A DNA stretch of 64,000 bases from a virus, in UHGV virus genome UHGV-0036384; one strand, written 5' to 3'. Within the stretch, counting starts at the first letter, position 1; each line of letters begins with the position of its first letter. Under the pieces are notes generated by a model. It worked only from the letters and a program-made list of their open reading frames with translations. It was not told the DNA's origin and did no database searches. Shown here one piece after another: positions 5,035 to 37,629 of this stretch. A program made the position numbers and the translations under genes.

Positions 5035-5631
5035 CTATGCCGCCTTTCCAATTATGGATTCAGCGACCAGAACAACCCCATGCTTACTTCGATCTGGGTG
5101 TTCACTCCATATCTCGGATTCAGGAATACTTACCCCGTCATAGCAAACACGTTCGCCGTCAAACGGGTAATACTGAGCGGCATCGGTGTCGAGGATAAAC
5201 ACTTTTAGCTCGGAAGAGCGACGGGCGATGTGTTGCCAAAGAGCTTTTCCACCTTCGTATTGCTCATTATCACTGAGCAAAACAACACCAGCTTTTGAGG
5301 CTACGGTTTCGTAAACAAAAGTAGCTAAACCGACATCCCGGACGGTTCCATCAACCACGATACCTTCAATCTGGGCAACATCGCTATCCTCCCAGAACTT
5401 CCTTACCAGTACGCCTTCAAGCTGCGGGCGACGTTGAAGTTCAAGAGTAGCGACAACCTTATGGCGCATATCACCATCGATAACAGAAGGCGCAGCCTCT
5501 ATTACAGCTGCAAATGGGGTTTTGGAATCCCATATAACCTGGTAAAGCACACCCTGGATGGTAACTCCGTCCAGGATCGAAAATCGACGAGCGACAGTAC
5601 CCGGGGAGTACGACATTGGAATCACAGCCAT
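5035..5631 (-). CDS. hypothetical protein (late operon)
   Basis: ORF with internal ATG at 5631 preceded by aaaggggga RBS; co-oriented with tail genes. Confidence 0.5.
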   Translation of the reverse strand: MAVIPMSYSPGTVARRFSILDGVTIQGVLYQVIWDSKTPFAAVIEAAPSVIDGDMRHKVVATLELQRRPQLEGVLVRKFWEDSDVAQIEGIVVDGTVRDVGLATFVYETVASKAGVVLLSDNEQYEGGKALWQHIARRSSELKVFILDTDAAQYYPFDGERVCYDGVSIPESEIWSEHPDRSKHGVVLVAESIIGKAA

Positions 5632-5754
5632 TTTAGAGTCCCCCTTTAACAGTACAGGCACAAACATCTACCTCAATAATTGTAGTTTATTAGAACATTA
5701 ATAATCTAACATAAAACTCAAGACAATGTTATCGATGCATTCTTATATAAAATA

Positions 5755-5785
5755 GTTATAAAAAAAGCTCCCGAAGGAGCTTTAA
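5755..5785 (-). terminator. terminator hairpin between tube-like gene and downstream gene
   Basis: aaagctcc-cgaa-ggagcttt stem-loop flanked by A/T runs. Confidence 0.4.
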
Positions 5786-5802
5786 AATACAAGGGATGAC
5801 TC

Positions 5803-6312
5803 TTAATCCCACTCAATCCAGTTGTAGACGATACGAAGTGACGGGCGCACAGCGGCAGTCACATCTTCGGTACTAAAGTCGATTGCATCACTGTAGATTT
5901 TGCAGTCCAACATTTCAATTGTTGTAGCAGCTTTTGTCACAGCGTTAACCCCGGAAGATTTGGATTCAGGGGTAGCAGCCATCGTGATATCAACATAGTC
6001 CTTCGCCGCAATGCGATCCTTGATGAACTGAAGAATATCGCCTTCGATAGTCTCCACGCACTGGACCTGGATTTCCCCAGAGTTTCGAATTGGTCCGTGC
6101 TGGTTGAACTTCACACCATTCGGACCATAGTCCTCCACATCCTCGCGTGTCATTTCAGGGATTTGCGACGTGCGAACCAGTACGCTGATATCTTCATGGC
6201 CTGCAAAAGTGAGCTGGAATTCAGAAGATACCAGTCGTTCGCCTTTGGCCGCGTTGGCAGTATAGCGGCCCTTAATAAATTTACGGTTTCCCTTAGTGTT
6301 ATTGTGCCCCAT
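5803..6312 (-). CDS. virion structural protein, tail tube-like
   Basis: 169-aa ORF in late morphogenetic operon; size and composition typical of myovirus tube proteins. Confidence 0.45.
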   Translation of the reverse strand: MGHNNTKGNRKFIKGRYTANAAKGERLVSSEFQLTFAGHEDISVLVRTSQIPEMTREDVEDYGPNGVKFNQHGPIRNSGEIQVQCVETIEGDILQFIKDRIAAKDYVDITMAATPESKSSGVNAVTKAATTIEMLDCKIYSDAIDFSTEDVTAAVRPSLRIVYNWIEWD

Positions 6313-6323
6313 ATAAAATCCTT

Positions 6324-6905
6324 TTACTGGAACGCCCGAACAATATCGGAGCTGTTATATATCGAAGAACCGGTCAACTGGAGGTTGACGGTGTTTTTCA
6401 GGAAATATCCATTACTGTCCCTTGGCGCATCGAGATCAAAACTTAAGTCCTGGATGGCGACATCGGTGATGTTGATCCGGCGACCAATGTTTAGCGTCAC
6501 GCGCTCCGGGATTCGACCACCAACATTGGCCGCTTTTAGTTCCGGGCTAATCATGGCTGTCAACGCGGCGATAGCGCCTGAAACTTCAATGAATGGATTG
6601 TTCAAAGCAATGAAAGTTACAGGCAGCGTGAACGTCGGCGGAGTCCCCCCTTCCCAAACCATTAAGCTATTCCAACGGGCAACCGACGTTGTTTCAGTAC
6701 CTACTTGCACAAAACCACCCAGAGCACCAGAAACAGATCCCATGGACATACCGGTAAACGGCGCTTCCCAATTCTGGGCCATGTTCATTGCCGCTCCCTG
6801 GCTGATATATCCGGTAACCTGGTACTGAGAGTTCGTTAAAGTAACTTTCAGAAATGGCGATACACCGTCAGCCTGGCTGTAAACCCCATAAGGTATAGGT
6901 GCCAT
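6324..6905 (-). CDS. virion structural protein (tail-associated), hypothetical
   Basis: 193-aa ORF tightly packed in late operon. Confidence 0.45.
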   Translation of the reverse strand: MAPIPYGVYSQADGVSPFLKVTLTNSQYQVTGYISQGAAMNMAQNWEAPFTGMSMGSVSGALGGFVQVGTETTSVARWNSLMVWEGGTPPTFTLPVTFIALNNPFIEVSGAIAALTAMISPELKAANVGGRIPERVTLNIGRRINITDVAIQDLSFDLDAPRDSNGYFLKNTVNLQLTGSSIYNSSDIVRAFQ

Positions 6906-6940
6906 TCAAGTTAAAGGCCGGAGTTCTCCGGCCTCCTCCT

Positions 6941-7756
6941 TTAGCCAAGGCGCTTACGGCGCAGTTTCATTGACTTTTTGCGGGCAAGTTTTGCCGCGCC
7001 GGTCTGGGCTTTTCGACGCGCTTTTTTCAGCGCCGATTTTTGAGCCGCAGTCAGACGTTTTTTACGCAGGCGTTTACGGATGAGTTTGATCTCACCGTTA
7101 CGAACAACCTTCTTAAATGCTTCAGTCAGCATTTCATCAGAAGTGCCAGCAACAACAAACGCCGCTTCCAGTTCGTCGCGGTCGTCGCTATCTAAACCAG
7201 CGATAGAGGCACCAACATCAGCAGCAGCGTCGTCGTCTTCATCGTCAGCCAGTGCTTCGATCAGGTCATCATCTACACCGCATGCTGCGAGGAAGTCAGC
7301 AACATTTGCCCATGCTTCGTTATAGGCATCGTCCTGTTCTTCTGTAACTTCGGAGTCGTCGTCATCAGAGATACCAGCGATAGCCTGAACGAAACCATCA
7401 AGGGAGTCGAAAGTCAGATCACCGCTATCAGCCCAGGAGAAAACGGCGTCGGCCGCATCACTCAACGCATTCTGCATAGCACTTCGATTTGCAGCTTCCA
7501 GAATCATCTGGTGCGCCTGTTCGACGGTCCATTCTTTACCGTCTTTCCCTTCCAGGATTTGCTCTGGAGCCGGGGCAGATGGAACGTTATCGTTAGTCTG
7601 TGCCGCCGGTTCCGGATTATTATTAATAACCGGATCTGTTGGCGGTTCGGCGCTTGCTCGGGCAGACTCCATCAGCTGCACAGGATCAGAGTTCAAAGCG
7701 AAACGGGACAGTCCATTCCCCAAAAATGCCCCGGATTGAAAAAAGTTTTTGCTCAT
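6941..7756 (-). CDS. highly acidic protein with lysine/arginine-rich C-terminal tail
   Basis: 271 aa; D/E-rich core (DDDDSEVTEEQDD, ADDEDDDAAAD) and basic C-terminus (RKRLRKKRL...KLRRKRLG). Confidence 0.5.
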   Translation of the reverse strand: MSKNFFQSGAFLGNGLSRFALNSDPVQLMESARASAEPPTDPVINNNPEPAAQTNDNVPSAPAPEQILEGKDGKEWTVEQAHQMILEAANRSAMQNALSDAADAVFSWADSGDLTFDSLDGFVQAIAGISDDDDSEVTEEQDDAYNEAWANVADFLAACGVDDDLIEALADDEDDDAAADVGASIAGLDSDDRDELEAAFVVAGTSDEMLTEAFKKVVRNGEIKLIRKRLRKKRLTAAQKSALKKARRKAQTGAAKLARKKSMKLRRKRLG

Positions 7757-7765
7757 TGTATTCCC

Positions 7766-9355
7766 TTACTTAATAAGCAGCGGTACGCCCTGGATACGAC
7801 GGGCTACGCCAGTCGGGCAGCAGGCCCAGACTACTTCCCATTTATCGAATTCCGCCTGCGTAACTTTCAGCACATACGGTTCTGTACCGTCAGCATCGGG
7901 ATCACGAGGAGCCACCAGAGCGCCGGAGGCGACAAAGCGATCTAAAAGTTTGGTCATCCCTTTAGTCAGGCCAGCCGCAGTAATACCGTCCGGGCTATGC
8001 TTCATCTGTCGGGCTAACTGGACAAAGAAACGACTGATTGCATTCATCAGGGATGGGACGTGCTGGAAGTGCAGATAGTTATCCTGCGTGCAGCAAGTTA
8101 AAGCATCGTCGATGATCATCTGGCCAGAGGTGCCAACAGATACTTTATTGAGACGGCCCTTGACCATTGCTTCTTCGTCCGGGGTATCTTCCGGATACAG
8201 CGGTTGAATTGACGCACGAGCAATGACGGCACGTTCTTCACCAGCCGGTGAGTAATGCCAACCGCCGACATCAGAGTTTTTCTTGACGCCACGAGCTTTC
8301 GCCGCATACGCCGCGCCAGACAGACCGAAGACCACACGGGATTGGGTCCATTTGTCTTTGCAGGAGAACGGGTAGTGATAGACAGAACAGCTTACATAAT
8401 CGGTACCAAGTAAACCGGTACCCTCAACAGCTGTTAGTGCTTCTGCGTACCTTAATGTCGGTTTGACATCAAAGAAGCCATCAATCAGGCGATCTGCACA
8501 GATTTTACCTAATGCGGTGATAGCCGCATTGTCATAGCAGCCCAGGCCAAGAACAGCGGTGTACATGTACGGCGCATTATTCAGCACTTTAACCGCACGC
8601 AGGTAAGCAGCGGTTGAGATTTTCGACTGATCGCCATTGGTACCGCCAGTGAATGCCACCGATTTTTTATTTGTTACTTTCGCTGTAGAAATCAGCTCTT
8701 CATTAACAACCGCACGCAGATATTTAGAACGGGCTTCCAGAGCCGTAGGCAGATAACACAAGCGGCCCATGTCATCTTTCGCTTCTTCCGCCAAAGACAC
8801 AGTGTGTGTCTCCAGGGTCGTTACCACACCGAGCGAAGTCGTCTGGGTCAGTTTTAAGAGGAAGCGTTCATTACCCGCGCTGTCCGCTGTTGCCGTTTCG
8901 ATGGTTAACTCACGGGTAGGTGAAATACACGGATCACCATCATCAACGTAGATAGCAAAGGCTTCGCCGCTATCAAGTTCAATTTCAGAACCGTATGGCA
9001 ACGCACTGTTAGCCGGTTCGCCTGATTCATCGAACATAATAATCGGGAACTTCGCATCATCCGGAACAGCACGGACAACATAACCAGACGTTTGCTGAAT
9101 AGCTTCGTACACATGGCGAATTGGTTCAAACTGTGAGCCGGAAGACGGCTTCAGCGGTTCGCCAAGAACATCTTCGTAATTGGACTCAGTAACCGCAAGA
9201 ACAGTAAACGGCTTGCCACGCGCAAATACGCCAATACCAGCCCACAAGCTGCTATTTAATGCAACACCGGTAGATAACGTCGCATCGGCATTGATCGGGC
9301 TAACCGCGACGCCGGATGCATTACCTAATGACTGTTGAATTGAATATTGAGACAT
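7766..9355 (-). CDS. tail sheath-like protein (P1 gp22-like)
   Basis: 529-aa ORF adjacent to head gene in late operon; size consistent with contractile sheath. Confidence 0.5.
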   Translation of the reverse strand: MSQYSIQQSLGNASGVAVSPINADATLSTGVALNSSLWAGIGVFARGKPFTVLAVTESNYEDVLGEPLKPSSGSQFEPIRHVYEAIQQTSGYVVRAVPDDAKFPIIMFDESGEPANSALPYGSEIELDSGEAFAIYVDDGDPCISPTRELTIETATADSAGNERFLLKLTQTTSLGVVTTLETHTVSLAEEAKDDMGRLCYLPTALEARSKYLRAVVNEELISTAKVTNKKSVAFTGGTNGDQSKISTAAYLRAVKVLNNAPYMYTAVLGLGCYDNAAITALGKICADRLIDGFFDVKPTLRYAEALTAVEGTGLLGTDYVSCSVYHYPFSCKDKWTQSRVVFGLSGAAYAAKARGVKKNSDVGGWHYSPAGEERAVIARASIQPLYPEDTPDEEAMVKGRLNKVSVGTSGQMIIDDALTCCTQDNYLHFQHVPSLMNAISRFFVQLARQMKHSPDGITAAGLTKGMTKLLDRFVASGALVAPRDPDADGTEPYVLKVTQAEFDKWEVVWACCPTGVARRIQGVPLLIK

Positions 9356-9415
9356 AACTTTCCCTGTTATGCGCCCCGCGCGGGGGCGCTATGTTAAACG
9401 GAGAGCTTCCCCTGA

Positions 9416-32185: not shown

Positions 32186-32764
32186 ATGTTGCGCTTTACT
32201 GAGGAAGAGTTTCAGGCTTTTAGTGAGCGTCGAAATAAGGGGCGGTCCAGGCCAAAAACCAAAAAGGATCCATTCTTATCGCTTGCGCCGGTAAAAGAAG
32301 TTTCTCCACATGCGAAGGCACTTGCAGCACTTGCAAAGAACCCAGACCTGCGCGACGGAAATTGCGAGCACTTCGAGCAGGTTTTCATTTTTGATTACTT
32401 CGAACGCAAGCACCCTGACATCTATGAGCTGTTGCATGCAACGCCTAACGGAGGGAAACGTTCAAAAGCAACCGCCGGGAAAATGAAGGCTGAAGGGCAG
32501 AAAAAAGGTTATCCGGACATGAGTCTCGATAAAGCATGCGGTATTTATCACGGCATGCGAATTGAGCTTAAAGAACCAAATGGTAAAGCCCCGACGAAAG
32601 AGCAGATCGCCTGGATGCGCAGGCTTAGAGAGGAAGGTTACTACGTCGTTCTTGCGTACGGTGCAGAACAAGCGATTACCGCCATCCTGGAATACATAAG
32701 TCTTAAAAAGGGTGAGGCTATTGAGCATGTATTGAACGGCGATAAGTGGTTGCATGCTGCTTAA
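32186..32764 (+). CDS. VRR-NUC domain nuclease
   Basis: 192 aa; PD-(D/E)xK-like core KGYPDMSL ... MRIELKEP. Confidence 0.5.
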   Translation: MLRFTEEEFQAFSERRNKGRSRPKTKKDPFLSLAPVKEVSPHAKALAALAKNPDLRDGNCEHFEQVFIFDYFERKHPDIYELLHATPNGGKRSKATAGKMKAEGQKKGYPDMSLDKACGIYHGMRIELKEPNGKAPTKEQIAWMRRLREEGYYVVLAYGAEQAITAILEYISLKKGEAIEHVLNGDKWLHAA

Positions 32765-32830
32765 AATAATAAATTAATTAGTGCATGTGCGCTCTTTGTG
32801 GTAGTGCACTTTAACATCGGGAGAATAATC

Positions 32831-32986
32831 GTGTCATCCAAGGTTAATTATGAGTCGCTGGCATCGGTCATGCCGCGTAATGAACAGGAAACAGATGCTG
32901 TAGTGGACCCTGTAATCGCTGAAATGAATGCTCGCCTGGAGGCTGAATTTGCAGCTGAGAATGAACATACCACCCAGGGCGACTAG
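32831..32986 (+). CDS. small acidic protein
   Basis: GTG start after gggaga RBS. Confidence 0.3.
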   Translation: MSSKVNYESLASVMPRNEQETDAVVDPVIAEMNARLEAEFAAENEHTTQGD

Positions 32987-33590
32987 GACTGTTTTTTGTG
33001 TCGGTAGCGGTCCGTCACTCACTCGTGAGGACTGTGCTGCTATAGAAAAAACTGGCTGTTCAATCATCGCGGTTAACAATTCCTGGCAGATGTTCGATGA
33101 CATTTATGCCTTATACGCCGGTGATTTGTCATGGTGGAAGCAATACGGTTCCACCATACCGGGAGGGAGGTTCCGCAAAGTGACAGCCAACCTGGCGGCG
33201 GCGAAATCATTTTCGTTGGAGTACAGGCGATATTGTGGACCGGCGGAAGGGGTAAATAGCGGCGCGCAGGCTATCAGTCTGGCTGCTGAATCAGGGGCTG
33301 AAGTAGTGGTATTAGTCGGCTATGACTGTTCTCTGCAAAACGGCCTTCATTGGCATGGCGCGCACCCTCAAGCCCTACGGAATCCAACGCAGGTGTCTAT
33401 TTCAAAATGGCAACAGCAGTTCCTGGATACCCGCAAAAAACACGCAGATTTACATATTTTGAATGCAAGTAGGAGCAGTGCAATTCAATGTTTCCCAAGA
33501 ATAAATTTAGAGGCAGTGATCGCGTTATTATCGTCGGCAGTGGCCCAAGCGCCGCAAACTTTGTTGCGCCGCGCGGAGTGCCGATTATAG
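32961..33590 (+). CDS. GT42/DUF115-like Rossmann protein (glycosyltransferase-like), paralog 1
   Basis: N-terminal VGSGPS ... IIAVNN and LVGYD motifs resembling sialyltransferase-type GNGPS / SGID signatures; start uncertain. Confidence 0.4.
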   Translation: MNIPPRATRTVFCVGSGPSLTREDCAAIEKTGCSIIAVNNSWQMFDDIYALYAGDLSWWKQYGSTIPGGRFRKVTANLAAAKSFSLEYRRYCGPAEGVNSGAQAISLAAESGAEVVVLVGYDCSLQNGLHWHGAHPQALRNPTQVSISKWQQQFLDTRKKHADLHILNASRSSAIQCFPRINLEAVIALLSSAVAQAPQTLLRRAECRL

Positions 33591-34114
33591 CGGTCAATGG
33601 GGCCATCGACTGGCTGAACCGCGCTTCTTATTTTTTCACCCTTGATCCATCCCCAGACAATATGCGGCGCGTTGGTCGTGGCCGCCGTCGCCGTGGTGTT
33701 TGTTATTGCATGGCACTACCCGATGTTAAAGAACGTGAAGTCAGAGATGGCGTTCTGTGCTTCCGTCGTGTGGCTGAACGCGGCATGGAGCCAAAAAATA
33801 CGAATTCTCCCGAGTGGTGGGCGTGGCGCTGGTCCGCACATTTCGGCCTTTGCGAAGATGAGAATGAAATTGCCAGCGGCAATAGTGCATATGGTGCTCT
33901 GAACCTGGCTTTCCATATCGGATTCAAACATGTAGCTCTGGTGGGCGTTGACGCTACGCAAGAACTACGCGTTCACTCCGGCGGCACGCCAAAAAATCTA
34001 AGTCACCTGCCTTTGTTATTCCAGTCTGCGCGTGAACAGATTGACGTTGTTTCATGCGGGAAAATGGGAGGTATTCCGCAGATGACTCTTAAAGAATGGC
34101 TGAAGAATACATGA
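33488..34114 (+). CDS. GT42/DUF115-like Rossmann protein, paralog 2
   Basis: IIVGSGPS ... IIAVNG ... HVALVGVD; AGGAG RBS 12 nt upstream of ATG. Confidence 0.45.
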
Positions 34115-34788
34115 TGGCACCCACAATTTATCACCGTATCGACGGTACCAAATACAGGAATGTCTGGGTTGTTGGTGATCTGCATGGTTGCTACACCAGA
34201 CTGATGTCCGAACTCCATCGTGTGGATTTTGACCCGGCGCAGGATTTACTGATATCGGTCGGCGACCTTATCGATCGCGGTACTGAAAATGTCGAATGTC
34301 TGGAACTATTGCAGATGCCCTGGTTCAGGGCAGTGATGGGGAACCATGAGCGGTTGATGCTCGATGCGTTAAGTCCTGATGGCAACGTGAATAACTGGCT
34401 AATGAATGGCGGACAATGGTTCTTCATGCTGGACACTGATCAGGAAATATTAGCCAGGGCGCTGGTGGAGCTGGTAAAGCGTCTGCCCTATATCATTGAG
34501 TTGAACACCGGGCAAGAAACTATCGTTATAGCCCATGCCGACTATCCGGATAATGAATACCAATTCGGTAAGGAGGTGCCGCTTTTCAACGTTGTCTGGG
34601 CGCGCGAGCGTATCAGTGATTCGATGGATGATATTGGTGGCGAAATTTCGGGCGCAGATCGTTTTATCTTTGGTCACACTCCGGTGAAAAGCCCGAAGAC
34701 ATTCTGGAATCAGCAGTATATCGACACTGGTGCCGTATTTTGCGGAAACCTGACATTGATGAAAGTGAAAGGTGATGGTGCAGCATGA
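34096..34788 (+). CDS. ppp: Ppp serine/threonine protein phosphatase (lambda PPase family)
   Basis: 230 aa; metallophosphatase motifs GDLHG, GDLIDRG, GNHE. Confidence 0.8.
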
Positions 34789-35486
34789 AGATTGCTTTAG
34801 TTCTTCGCTCTGGTGGTGACTATAACGCTTCCGATGTGCAGTGGCTGGTTAATCAACTGCCAAAAGACTATGAAATTATTTGCCTGACAGACCTGAAGTG
34901 TTTACATGTACCTGGCGTCAAAGTTATCCCATTGATCAACCAGTGGCAAAAGTGCCGTGGCTGGTGGGCGAAAATCGAGTTGTTCCGACCGGATATAACC
35001 GATGATCTGTTCTATCTGGATTTGGACACGGTTATTGCCGGTGATATACGCCCAATCCTAGAGCATCCACCAACCAGCTTCACCATGCTTAGGGATTTTT
35101 ACCATCCACAATATCGTGGTAGCGGTGCCCTGTGGATACCAAATAGTGTTAAAGCGCATATCTGGAGTTCATTCTGGCAAGATCCGGAAGGTTGGATTTC
35201 TCGTTGTGTCACTACTGAGTGCTGGGGTGACCAGGGGTTCTTACGAAAGGTTATGGGCGATGATACACCAGCATTTCAGGATCTGTATCCAGGATGGTTT
35301 GTAAGTTACAAGGCCGATGTTGTGGAACCTGGTTCAAAATATGCGAGCGCGCGTTACTCCAGGGGGAATGGGGCATTACCAAAAGACTGCCGAATAATCT
35401 TTTTCCACGGCAAACCGCGACCTCGCGAAGTGTCAGAGGATTGGCTCCCCCTTATCAGCTCATTTTTTGAGCGAGAATCAGAATAA
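34785..35486 (+). CDS. GT-A-like glycosyltransferase candidate
   Basis: 233 aa; DxD-type motif FYLDLDTVI after Rossmann-like N-terminus. Confidence 0.4.
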
Positions 35487-35487
35487 T

Positions 35488-35555
35488 ATTGCTCTAATAA
35501 TTCCATATTTTTAAAACGTGATGTACACTCATCACGTTTTTTATTAGAGCAATCT
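35488..35555. promoter_or_regulatory. pair of inverted C1 operator-like sites bracketing a terminator hairpin
   Basis: attgctctaataattcc (35488-35504), hairpin aaaacgtgatg-tacactc-atcacgtttt (35513-35540), inverted ttattagagcaat (35541-35553). Confidence 0.5.
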
Positions 35556-35567
35556 ACAAGGTGCACT

Positions 35568-35786
35568 ATGTGGCCATTCCGACGGAAATATCACTACTGG
35601 CTGATCGCCTTTGTTACGCCGACCGGCGGTATCAGGCATGTCATCACCAGGTATCGCAACAAGAGACTCACCTTAGCCAGAATTTTACAGGCTGCCATAG
35701 GTGAGGGACTGGATACAAATTGCGTAGTCCTTCCTCCTTCATACTTAGGAAAAATGACCGAAGCACAAGCTAATACGGAACTTTGA
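35568..35786 (+). CDS. small hypothetical protein
   Basis: 72-aa ORF. Confidence 0.35.
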   Translation: MWPFRRKYHYWLIAFVTPTGGIRHVITRYRNKRLTLARILQAAIGEGLDTNCVVLPPSYLGKMTEAQANTEL

Positions 35787-37050: not shown

Positions 37051-37122
37051 TAGTTACAGCGTCACTTTTAATGCTGGTGGAGTGCGCCCACCAGCATTTT
37101 TTTCGTCCAATGAGGAGGGCAT

Positions 37123-37629
37123 TTGAGTATTTTCAATAAACACGCACACCAGGAACGTCCGTATATCGTCATAGTCGATATTGATGGAACAATATCAGAG
37201 GCAACTGAAGACAGACTGCATTTGCTTCCGCCACCAGGTAAAGGTGCATTAACAAAGGACTGGAACGAGTTTAATCTCGCCTGTGACACCGATACTCCCA
37301 TCACTCCGGTTATTGATATGGTGCGCCAGTTATTTAACGTTTACACGGTCTGGTTTGTAACCGGGCGCTGTGAGATCGCAAGGGATAAAACACGAGCCTG
37401 GCTGCGGAAGTACGTAACAAACGGGGCTGAGCCTTTGCTATCTATGCGTCCTGCCACCGATGACAGAAATGACGGTCCAGCAAAGATTGATCTCCTGAAG
37501 AAAATTGGTCTAAGTAAAATTGCGTTCGCGCTGGAAGATAAGATTGAAGTGGCGCGTGTTTTCAGGAGTCACGGCGTACTTACGTTAATGGTCAGGGAGT
37601 ATGAAAACGCGCTTCTCCACCAACAATAA
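37123..37629 (+). CDS. HAD-like phosphatase
   Basis: 168 aa; DxDGT motif VIVDIDGTI near N-terminus. Confidence 0.5.
   Translation: MSIFNKHAHQERPYIVIVDIDGTISEATEDRLHLLPPPGKGALTKDWNEFNLACDTDTPITPVIDMVRQLFNVYTVWFVTGRCEIARDKTRAWLRKYVTNGAEPLLSMRPATDDRNDGPAKIDLLKKIGLSKIAFALEDKIEVARVFRSHGVLTLMVREYENALLHQQ

Follow-up and report, generated by a model that had tools for sequence, protein, structure and literature searches.

A putative pmgO-pmgP-pmgQ glycosylation cassette in phage P1 and its relatives

We analysed a 64,000-nucleotide stretch of the virus genome UHGV-0036384 (hereafter the window), focusing on a block of genes that corresponds to pmgO, pmgP, ppp and pmgQ of bacteriophage P1. The products of pmgO, pmgP and pmgQ resemble glycosyltransferases in fold, motifs or sequence profiles, and related genes recur together in other phages, often directly after a capsid gene. 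On sequence grounds, these genes are best read as a module for carbohydrate or post-translational modification. We propose more specifically that they encode a three-enzyme glycosylation cassette that acts in the cytoplasm on a virion protein, perhaps the capsid protein, and to which ppp does not belong; we regard this full proposal as evenly poised between right and wrong. That the three genes make up one functional unit is very likely. The original prediction had also described a modification module, with ppp as a member. Its carbohydrate or post-translational reading holds up while the membership of ppp does not, since the three other genes occur together without ppp elsewhere.

Positions 32700-35700 of the window share 99.7% DNA identity with phage P1 (NC_005856, AF234172/3) and 97.7-99.9% with P7, SJ46, RCS47 and other P1-like phage-plasmids. 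The P1 annotation and the list of open reading frames (ORFs) together identify the four genes, which settles whether they are conserved in P1, a point that the original prediction had left open: they are P1 genes. The protein sequences of PmgN, PmgO and PmgP are the same as in P1, Ppp differs by I7M and PmgQ by N94H. Window coordinates are offset from the P1 record by -46664, as checked on pmgL, pmgO, pmgR and pmgS. The genes under study are as follows.

32928-33590, plus strand: pmgO, 220 amino acids (aa), MptE-like/sialyltransferase-like fold, predicted glycosyltransferase
33488-34114, plus strand: pmgP, 208 aa, second enzyme with an MptE-like fold, distant homologue of PmgO
34096-34788, plus strand: ppp, 230 aa, lambda-type Ser/Thr (PPP/metallophos) phosphatase
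34785-35486, plus strand: pmgQ, 233 aa, GT8-like (GT-A, DxD) predicted retaining hexosyltransferase

At the level of single genes the idea is known: RefSeq names PmgO an alpha-2,3-sialyltransferase and PmgQ a glycosyltransferase, and the PHROGs carry the same labels. We found no functional study of the cassette in the searchable literature, from which the cassette itself, its placement after capsid genes, its gene fusions, the exclusion of ppp and possible glycosylation of the P1 virion also appear to be absent. P1 is a paradigm phage that serves as the standard tool for transduction and as the basis of delivery particles, both phagemid and antibacterial. Its pmgO, pmgP and pmgQ genes have been listed as putative morphogenetic for 20 years, and neither knockout nor CRISPR interference (CRISPRi) screens have given them a phenotype.

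Folds and motifs of PmgO, PmgP and PmgQ

PmgO and PmgP carry similar series of motifs. Those of PmgO are GSGPS (residues 26-30, nucleotides 33003-33017), AVNNSW (N50), YAGD (D66) and NSG (S111), followed on the C-terminal side by VVLVGYD (residues 127-133), GYDCS (D133) and HWHGAH (141-146). PmgP has GSGPS (residues 17-21, nucleotides 33536-33550), AVNGA (N37), FTLD (D53) and GNSA (S133), then VALVGVD (residues 149-155), GVDA (D155) and NLSHLP (H173). Five motifs are common to both, namely SGPS, (I)AVN, an acidic residue at the end of a strand (YAGD/FTLD), (G)NS(G/A) and G-x-D. Direct comparison by BLASTP gives a weak match (E 0.003) that covers only the N-terminal GSGPS...IIAVN segment. Profiles of the two families (33 and 32 proteins, compared with hhalign) align over 161 columns with a probability of 98% and an E value of 1.9e-13, and cross-hits among PHROGs agree. 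Judged by their profiles, PmgO and PmgP are genuine but distant homologues. The original description of two adjacent paralogs with GSGPS and VGxD motifs is thereby borne out, and all of the quoted motifs are present.

AlphaFold2 models of both proteins are confident, with predicted local distance difference test (pLDDT) scores of 86.6 for PmgO and 91.8 for PmgP. Fold searches with either model place Maf first, with the longest alignment (163 residues), followed by SteA, thiamine pyrophosphokinases (TPK) and GT29 sialyltransferases; a search of BFVD returned only uncharacterised phage MptE-like proteins. Both models have the Rossmann-like fold that is common to Maf, MptE, Cst and TPK. The Pfam family PF01973 (MptE-like, formerly DUF115) matches 31 of 33 members of the PmgO family and 28 of 32 of the PmgP family at E<=0.01, and several homologues have a precomputed match, and the homologue P0171 scores 44.6 bits. 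Single-protein scans of PmgO and PmgP from P1 against Pfam and NCBIfam gave only sub-threshold MptE-like matches (23.4 and 20.9 bits for PF01973, with a gathering threshold of 34.6).

Searches of PDB sequences with profiles of the single families found only Cst-II for PmgO (E 0.3-0.6) and no match for PmgP. Pooling 55 MptE-like sequences into one profile gave E values of 0.0034 for Maf, 0.0047 for Cst-II and 0.62 for the MptE hydroxymethyldihydropterin pyrophosphokinase (HPPK). In the pooled alignment the invariant Asp of the G-x-D motif (PmgO D133, PmgP D155) coincides with D415 of Maf, and the Ser of the NSG motif, which as NSG/GNSA is invariant in the families, coincides with S132 of Cst-II. 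D415 and the conserved Ser have been reported as required for Maf activity (bioRxiv 10.1101/2020.06.03.131540). For MmMaf E324, an acidic residue on which Maf activity likewise depends, the counterpart (PmgO D66, PmgP D53) is placed by spacing only. Invariant His residues follow the G-x-D strand (H141 and H143 in PmgO, H173 in PmgP) and are not aligned to His188 of Cst-II.

The resemblance to Maf (Maf_flag10/PF01973; PDB 5mu5) thus includes the GSGPS loop, the conserved Ser and the G-x-D Asp (Magnetospirillum magneticum D415, PmgO D133). Maf glycosylates protein O-linked in the cytoplasm and can use cytidine monophosphate-activated Kdo (CMP-Kdo) in E. coli. PmgO and PmgP differ from it as single domains of about 200 residues that lack the flagellin-binding N- and C-terminal domains of Maf (more than 600 residues). 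The sequence similarity is also marginal (E 0.003, with the pooled profile only), the acceptor would not be flagellin, and the activity of PmgO and PmgP is a prediction. The GT42 enzymes Cst-I and Cst-II align through their N-terminal G-x-G-P-S-L loop, T/N-S-G motif and G-I/Y-D strand. They differ in that no single-family match reaches significance and in that PF06002, the GT42 family, matches neither PmgO and PmgP nor their family members. By sequence, PmgO and PmgP are therefore not members of GT42. The earlier assignment to a GT42/DUF115 fold survives for the sialyltransferase- and MptE-like fold, as the models and the pooled profile indicate, and has to be given up for membership of GT42.

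The fold of PmgO and PmgP also houses ATP-dependent pyrophosphokinases and is, by itself, no proof of transferase activity. Both proteins could instead be pyrophosphokinases of the MptE/TPK type, which during infection would diphosphorylate some small molecule, for instance a signalling compound or the precursor of a cofactor. Their best Pfam family is indeed named for the MptE pyrophosphokinase, and the entire superfamily shares the conserved Asp and Ser motifs, the Maf-type motifs being present in its pyrophosphokinase members too. This alternative is nevertheless quite improbable given that Maf is the top and longest fold match for both proteins, that HPPK ranks about 100-fold below Maf and Cst-II in the search with the pooled profile, and that pterin or thiamine pathway genes are absent nearby. 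MptE-like domains are, moreover, consistently linked and repeatedly fused to a GT8-like glycosyltransferase and interleaved with sugar methyltransferases, a deacetylase, a sulfotransferase and GT2 enzymes. We consider PmgO and PmgP to be probable glycosyltransferases rather than pyrophosphokinases.

PmgQ is a divergent enzyme whose relationship to GT8 was detected only by searching the PDB with a family profile. Scans of PmgQ itself against Pfam and NCBIfam gave no match, and none of the 28 members of its family matches any Pfam model at E<=0.01, Glyco_transf_8 included. Over about 170 residues the family profile matches AgtA (Skp1 alpha-galactosyltransferase, 6mw5; E 1.5e-7), the streptococcal GT8 enzyme 5gvv (E 1.3e-5) and glycogenin (E 6.8e-5). 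The motifs of PmgQ are FYLDLDTVI with D79-L-D81 (nucleotides 35019-35027), G148-D149-Q150 and H208-G-K-P. DxD, G-D-Q and H-x-G-x-x-(K/R)P are in register with the GT8 structures, at positions that are invariant or at least 90% conserved in the 28 sequences. D79-L-D81 is invariant and aligns with D-A-D of AgtA and glycogenin and with D-S-D of 5gvv; D149-Q150 (invariant) and H208-G209 (at least 90% conserved) are in register with GDQGLL and HFLGQTKPW of glycogenin. PmgQ also matches phrog_1962, labelled glycosyltransferase.

These results agree with the original view that the gene after ppp encodes a GT-A-type enzyme with a DxD motif, and PmgQ is very probably a glycosyltransferase. From its motifs it is presumably a retaining enzyme that depends on a uridine diphosphate (UDP)-activated sugar. 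The likeness extends to GT8 enzymes in general (glycogenin, AgtA, the streptococcal enzyme, WaaO/WaaJ; profile E values of 1.5e-7 to 1e-4), several of which extend protein-linked glycans. PmgQ differs in being shorter, with about 200-235 residues across the family, and in the lack of a Pfam match in the family. The PmgQ family is large, with 5,905 clusters at 50% identity (E<=1e-3), of which 1,757 remain at E<=1e-30. PmgO, PmgP and PmgQ all lack hydrophobic or transmembrane segments.

The cassette in other phages and the position of ppp

Genes similar to pmgO, pmgP and pmgQ are found together well beyond P1. They are contiguous in a lambdoid prophage of Citrobacter rodentium, where ppp is absent. 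The order O-P-(x)-Q is present in 13 of 14 viral contigs retrieved by a PmgP homologue. Six of these contigs come from further P1-like phage-plasmids, which lack ppp and have their genes in the order pmgM-O-P-Q-R-S, and in four HK97-like contigs O, P and Q are likewise contiguous without ppp. Prophages of Onishia (Halomonadaceae) and Martelella (Rhizobiales) have an HK97-type major capsid gene, then a PmgO-like and a PmgQ-like gene, then a connector or head-closure gene. The recurring order is terminase, portal, protease, capsid, MptE-like gene, zero to three further genes and PmgQ-like gene, and is seen in phages of Gamma-, Beta- and Alphaproteobacteria and in metagenomic phages. In HK97-like prophages and viral contigs the intervening genes include PmgP-like ones, methyltransferases and other tailoring enzymes, and a connector gene comes after the PmgQ-like gene. 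Almost all hosts of the cassette are diderm bacteria.

Locus scans covered viral contigs and one genome per species, and the pooled census comprises 119 non-P1 loci with a PmgQ-like gene. An MptE-like gene lies within 4 kb on the same strand in 68 of them, upstream of the PmgQ-like gene in 63 of the 68. A capsid gene is recognisable in 28 of the 119 loci, and in 24 of these an MptE-like gene follows it within 700 nucleotides. The capsid-adjacent arrangement is seen with two unrelated capsid families (PF05065 and PF19821), and this speaks for a functional connection rather than the descent of a single complete head module.

Fusions and accompanying genes add to this picture. Nine of the 16 long representatives of the family unite a PmgQ-like with an MptE-like domain, in either order, and count as independent fusions of the Rosetta-stone kind. 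Interspersed with the cassette are genes that encode FkbM and TylF/MT24 methyltransferases, a PIG-L deacetylase, a sulfotransferase, GT2 enzymes, a TupA-like ATP-grasp protein, a radical SAM enzyme and extra GT8-like copies. In one metagenomic contig (L071; IMGVR_UViG_3300006931_000010, 5293-10532) the head genes are followed by a PmgO-like gene and by genes for a 326-aa protein and a 421-aa PmgQ-PmgO fusion, together with a TylF-like O-methyltransferase, a PIG-L deacetylase and a sulfotransferase. This gene content suggests that the glycan made by this phage may be methylated, de-N-acetylated and sulfated.

Ppp is, on all of its profile matches, an ordinary lambda-type PPP phosphatase, as the original prediction had it. 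The three metal-binding motifs GDLHG, GDLIDRG and GNHE lie at residues 27, 56 and 82. Ppp matches Pfam Metallophos (PF00149) with 59.4 bits (cut-off 21.5), NCBIfam PRK11439 with 274.9 bits, which is under the equivalog cut-off of 326, and the NinI-like phrog_246 with E 5e-113; the P1 annotation gives it 64% identity to the lambda phosphatase (PPase). The motifs (GDxHG, GDxxDRG, GNHE) and the Metallophos domain are shared with lambda NinI/PPase and with E. coli PrpA/PrpB. Ppp differs from lambda PPase in the location of its gene, which is surrounded by glycosyltransferase genes instead of a nin region.

This position could mean that all four genes are one module in which dephosphorylation by Ppp prepares or regulates the glycosylation target. 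In P1, P7 and close relatives ppp does lie between pmgP and pmgQ with overlaps of 4 to 19 nucleotides, which imply that it is co-transcribed and probably translationally coupled with them. We nonetheless find a four-gene module improbable. Ppp is found within the O-P-Q region only in the P1/P7 sublineage, and O, P and Q occur without it in the six other P1-like phage-plasmids, in phiNP-type prophages and in all HK97-like loci. Its nearest relatives are lambda NinI-type phosphatases. In phage D6 a ppp homologue (L174, 3447-4139; 90% DNA identity to the window) sits among small lambdoid nin-like genes with no O, P or Q beside it, so that ppp moves independently of pmgO, pmgP and pmgQ among P1-like phages. 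Taken together, the D6 placement and the loci without ppp indicate that ppp is a lineage-specific insertion and stands outside the cassette.

Acceptor and donor of the putative cassette

In the scheme that we favour, we infer the transferase activity itself, together with the acceptor, the sugar donors and the sequence of the steps. The cassette would be expressed during lytic growth. PmgO and PmgP would act as soluble enzymes, nearest to Maf flagellin O-glycosyltransferases and Cst sialyltransferases, which use CMP-activated ulosonic acids, and PmgQ as a soluble, DxD-dependent retaining hexosyltransferase with a UDP-sugar donor. Between them they would build a short glycan in the cytoplasm on a structural protein of the virion, for which the major capsid protein is the leading candidate. 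PmgO and PmgP would take CMP-Kdo as donor, and Ppp would play no part. That the acceptor is a virion protein is slightly favoured in our assessment.

The donor is a more tentative matter, and Kdo is a possibility that we put at somewhat below even. E. coli K-12 is not known to make CMP-Neu5Ac, and the label sialyltransferase is for this reason unlikely to be literally correct for PmgO. Because K-12 lacks sialic, pseudaminic and legionaminic acid and the cassette lacks genes for sugar-nucleotide synthesis, CMP-Kdo, as the one CMP-activated ulosonic acid that K-12 can supply, would be the most economical donor. Maf enzymes use CMP-Kdo in E. coli strains that lack nonulosonic acids (bioRxiv 10.1101/2020.06.03.131540), and this use, like the diderm hosts of the cassette, fits a Kdo donor.

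Several observations weigh against the proposal. P1 PmgO and PmgP score under the Pfam gathering threshold for PF01973, and the Kdo donor is purely a deduction. The PmgP family does match the model of WaaZ, the Kdo-III transferase of lipopolysaccharide (LPS), but weakly (10 of 32 members, best E 0.006). An MptE-like neighbour is missing from about 40% of the PmgQ-like genes. The cassette of P1 itself stands away from the capsid gene and abuts only the head-completion gene pmgR. The lambdoid prophage of C. rodentium and a Serratia locus have the cassette next to lysis genes, a typical moron position. Some PmgQ-like genes with no MptE-like partner follow tail-fibre and tail-fibre-assembly genes next to a hexapeptide acetyltransferase gene (L076, 3009-7729), an arrangement that looks like an LPS-conversion module. 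Finally, the paper on the P1 virion proteome does not include PmgO, PmgP, Ppp or PmgQ among virion components and reports no glycosylation.

Some of these observations suit a different target. The P1 receptor is the LPS core glucose. The cassette might modify the host envelope, that is, the LPS core or another surface glycan, and so block superinfection or the re-adsorption of progeny to debris. GT8 is the family to which the LPS outer-core transferases belong, and the weak PmgP-family matches to WaaZ point the same way. Comparison by hhalign with the single K-12 WaaZ and WaaO sequences puts the motifs in register, those of PmgQ with WaaO included, at probabilities of 9-18%, which are not significant and count as leads at most. 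The cassettes beside lysis genes, and PmgQ-only loci after tail-fibre genes with a hexapeptide acetyltransferase, the classic position of a conversion moron, are also in keeping with an envelope target. PmgQ-only loci may indeed target LPS or the tail fibre instead; a further enterobacterial one (L063) adjoins terminase and portal genes. We nevertheless judge an envelope target for the cassette unlikely. The cassette directly follows the capsid gene in 24 of the 28 loci with an identifiable capsid, across both capsid families, and the closest structural relative, Maf, is a protein O-glycosyltransferase. The P1 operon is annotated with C1 operators and so should be off in lysogens. Deletions have no plating phenotype, a weak argument as this assay is blind to exclusion. 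If LPS were the target, the cassette would be a system of lytic-phase receptor editing in a phage whose receptor is the LPS core.

Phage DNA was considered as a third acceptor, with glycosylation of hypermodified bases serving to evade restriction. Phage GT-A enzymes, GT8-like secondary transferases included, do decorate DNA that contains 5-hydroxymethylcytosine or 5-hydroxymethyluracil (bioRxiv 10.1101/2023.12.21.572611). Such systems are tied to 5mYOX/TET or thymidylate-synthase-like genes, none of which lies beside the cassette in the loci examined, and the cassette is found in head modules rather than replication modules. P1 DNA is a standard restriction substrate and is protected by the Dar proteins and methylation. 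Antirestriction is unchanged in the deletions (PMC9024508). We rejected DNA glycosylation, a very remote prospect, on the lack of 5mYOX/ThyS partners and the head-module location.

A virion acceptor is consistent with what is known of P1 mutants. Single deletions of all four genes are non-essential and leave antirestriction unchanged (PMC10695390; PMC9024508), and under CRISPRi the efficiency of plating (EOP) is 1.1 for pmgO, 0.72 for pmgP, 1.2 for ppp and 1.4 for pmgQ (PMC10695390). Dispensability for plaque formation is what would be expected of an accessory virion modification. The position of pmgQ directly before head-completion gene pmgR mirrors that of the connector gene after PmgQ-like genes in HK97-like prophages, and the order O-P-Q-R-S is kept in other P1-like elements.

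The nearest precedent is the Che8-type system of mycobacteriophages. It is reportedly dispensable for plaque formation, as the P1 cassette is, and mycobacteriophage glycosylation genes are accompanied by methyltransferases, as relatives of the P1 cassette are. Phage-encoded glycosyltransferases of this type modify the major capsid protein (Freeman et al. 2023, as cited in PMC11256854). The mycobacteriophage genes may sit next to the capsid gene, as those of the relatives of the P1 cassette do, but PMC11256854 places them near the 3' end of the genome. The P1 cassette, as a putative virion glycosylation system, differs in its Gram-negative hosts, in its MptE-like and GT8-like enzymes and in lying apart from the capsid gene.

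Were the capsid of P1 glycosylated, this would account for the absence of a plaque phenotype. It would also mean that the particles bear a host-dependent modification, with consequences for how antibodies recognise them and for their pharmacokinetics. Virion glycosylation has so far been shown in actinobacteriophages and giant viruses, and its range would then take in thousands of lineages of phages with diderm hosts. The existing P1 deletion library (Gonzales 2022) makes capsid glycosylation directly testable. A broader idea, to which we give low credence, is that P1 and a very large number of phages of Gram-negative hosts O-glycosylate their capsids in the cytoplasm with small Maf-like enzymes that use CMP-Kdo, an LPS precursor of the host, and a GT8-like enzyme that adds hexose. 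Such virions would be coated with LPS-like sugars, which would change how immunogenic or stable they are or how they bind non-productively. No earlier virion glycosylation system is known to have been described for phages of Gram-negative hosts, and the linkage would be the first natural one between Kdo and protein.

Expression and neighbouring genes

Other features around the cassette are listed below, with positions in the P1 record where these come from the P1 annotation.

31831-31849, plus strand: LPpmgL, late promoter 5' of pmgL-pmgM and the cassette (P1 annotation, record 78495-78513)
32732-32758, plus strand: PpmgN, predicted sigma-70 promoter (P1 annotation, record 79396-79422)
32771-32787, minus strand: Oppp, C1 repressor operator (P1 annotation, record 79435-79451)
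32831-32986, plus strand: pmgN, 51 aa, overlapping the annotated start of pmgO (ORF list and P1 annotation)
35488-35554: C1 operators OpmgRa and OpmgRb with promoter PpmgR, at the downstream edge of the cassette (P1 annotation, record 82152-82217)
35568-35786, plus strand: pmgR, head-completion gene directly after pmgQ
37070-37098, plus strand: strong intrinsic-terminator-like hairpin after pmgS, with an 11 bp stem followed by a T run

The annotated C1 operators and late promoter imply that the cassette would be off in the prophage and on in lytic growth. No terminator comparable to the hairpin at 37070-37098 was found between pmgL and pmgS, and this hairpin is likely to end the transcription unit that holds the cassette. 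The small gene pmgN sits right at the C1-controlled promoter of the cassette. CRISPRi makes it appear essential (EOP 1.4e-2), whereas its deletion is non-essential (PMC10695390).

Gene starts in this region are closely packed. PmgN is found 5' of PmgO only in close relatives of P1, and the annotated pmgO start at 32928 overlaps pmgN by 59 nucleotides. Most PmgO homologues start only about 3-20 residues ahead of the SGPS motif, and confidence is low for residues 1-17 of the PmgO model; the internal ATG at 32961, chosen in the original prediction, may be the real start. The pmgO and pmgP genes overlap out of frame by 103 nucleotides (33488-33590), and the GSGPS loop of PmgP (nucleotides 33536-33550) is coded within the overlap. 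The C. rodentium cassette, which is 40-57% identical, keeps an O/P overlap of about 94 nucleotides (L004, 8510-8603). PmgP homologues are often truncated by gene callers with loss of the motif (for example P0281, 176 aa, and P0174, 178 aa). The product name "norphogenetic protein", a typing error in the original P1 annotation, has been carried over as the official name of hundreds of PmgO- and PmgP-family proteins in RefSeq and GenBank.

Two other loci have further features. In Serratia plymuthica (L003; CP180221, 2525-15731) PmgQ-like and PmgP-like genes lie beside a phage lysozyme gene, and two PmgO-like copies (8016-8519 and 15216-15731) flank genes for Big_1-domain proteins and a lipoxygenase, an odd context that is not obviously viral. 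Another enterobacterial PmgQ-like gene (L069) has no MptE-like partner.

A defence or anti-defence role was dropped after PADLOC gave no defence-system match for any of six proteins. PmgM (32186-32764) has a sub-threshold match to a VRR-NUC nuclease (21.3 bits against 23.8), and Pap (37123-37629) matches the HAD phosphatase domain of polynucleotide kinase-phosphatase (PF25109, 46 bits) rather than a generic acid phosphatase. These two matches hint at a possible role of the neighbouring genes in nucleic-acid end processing.

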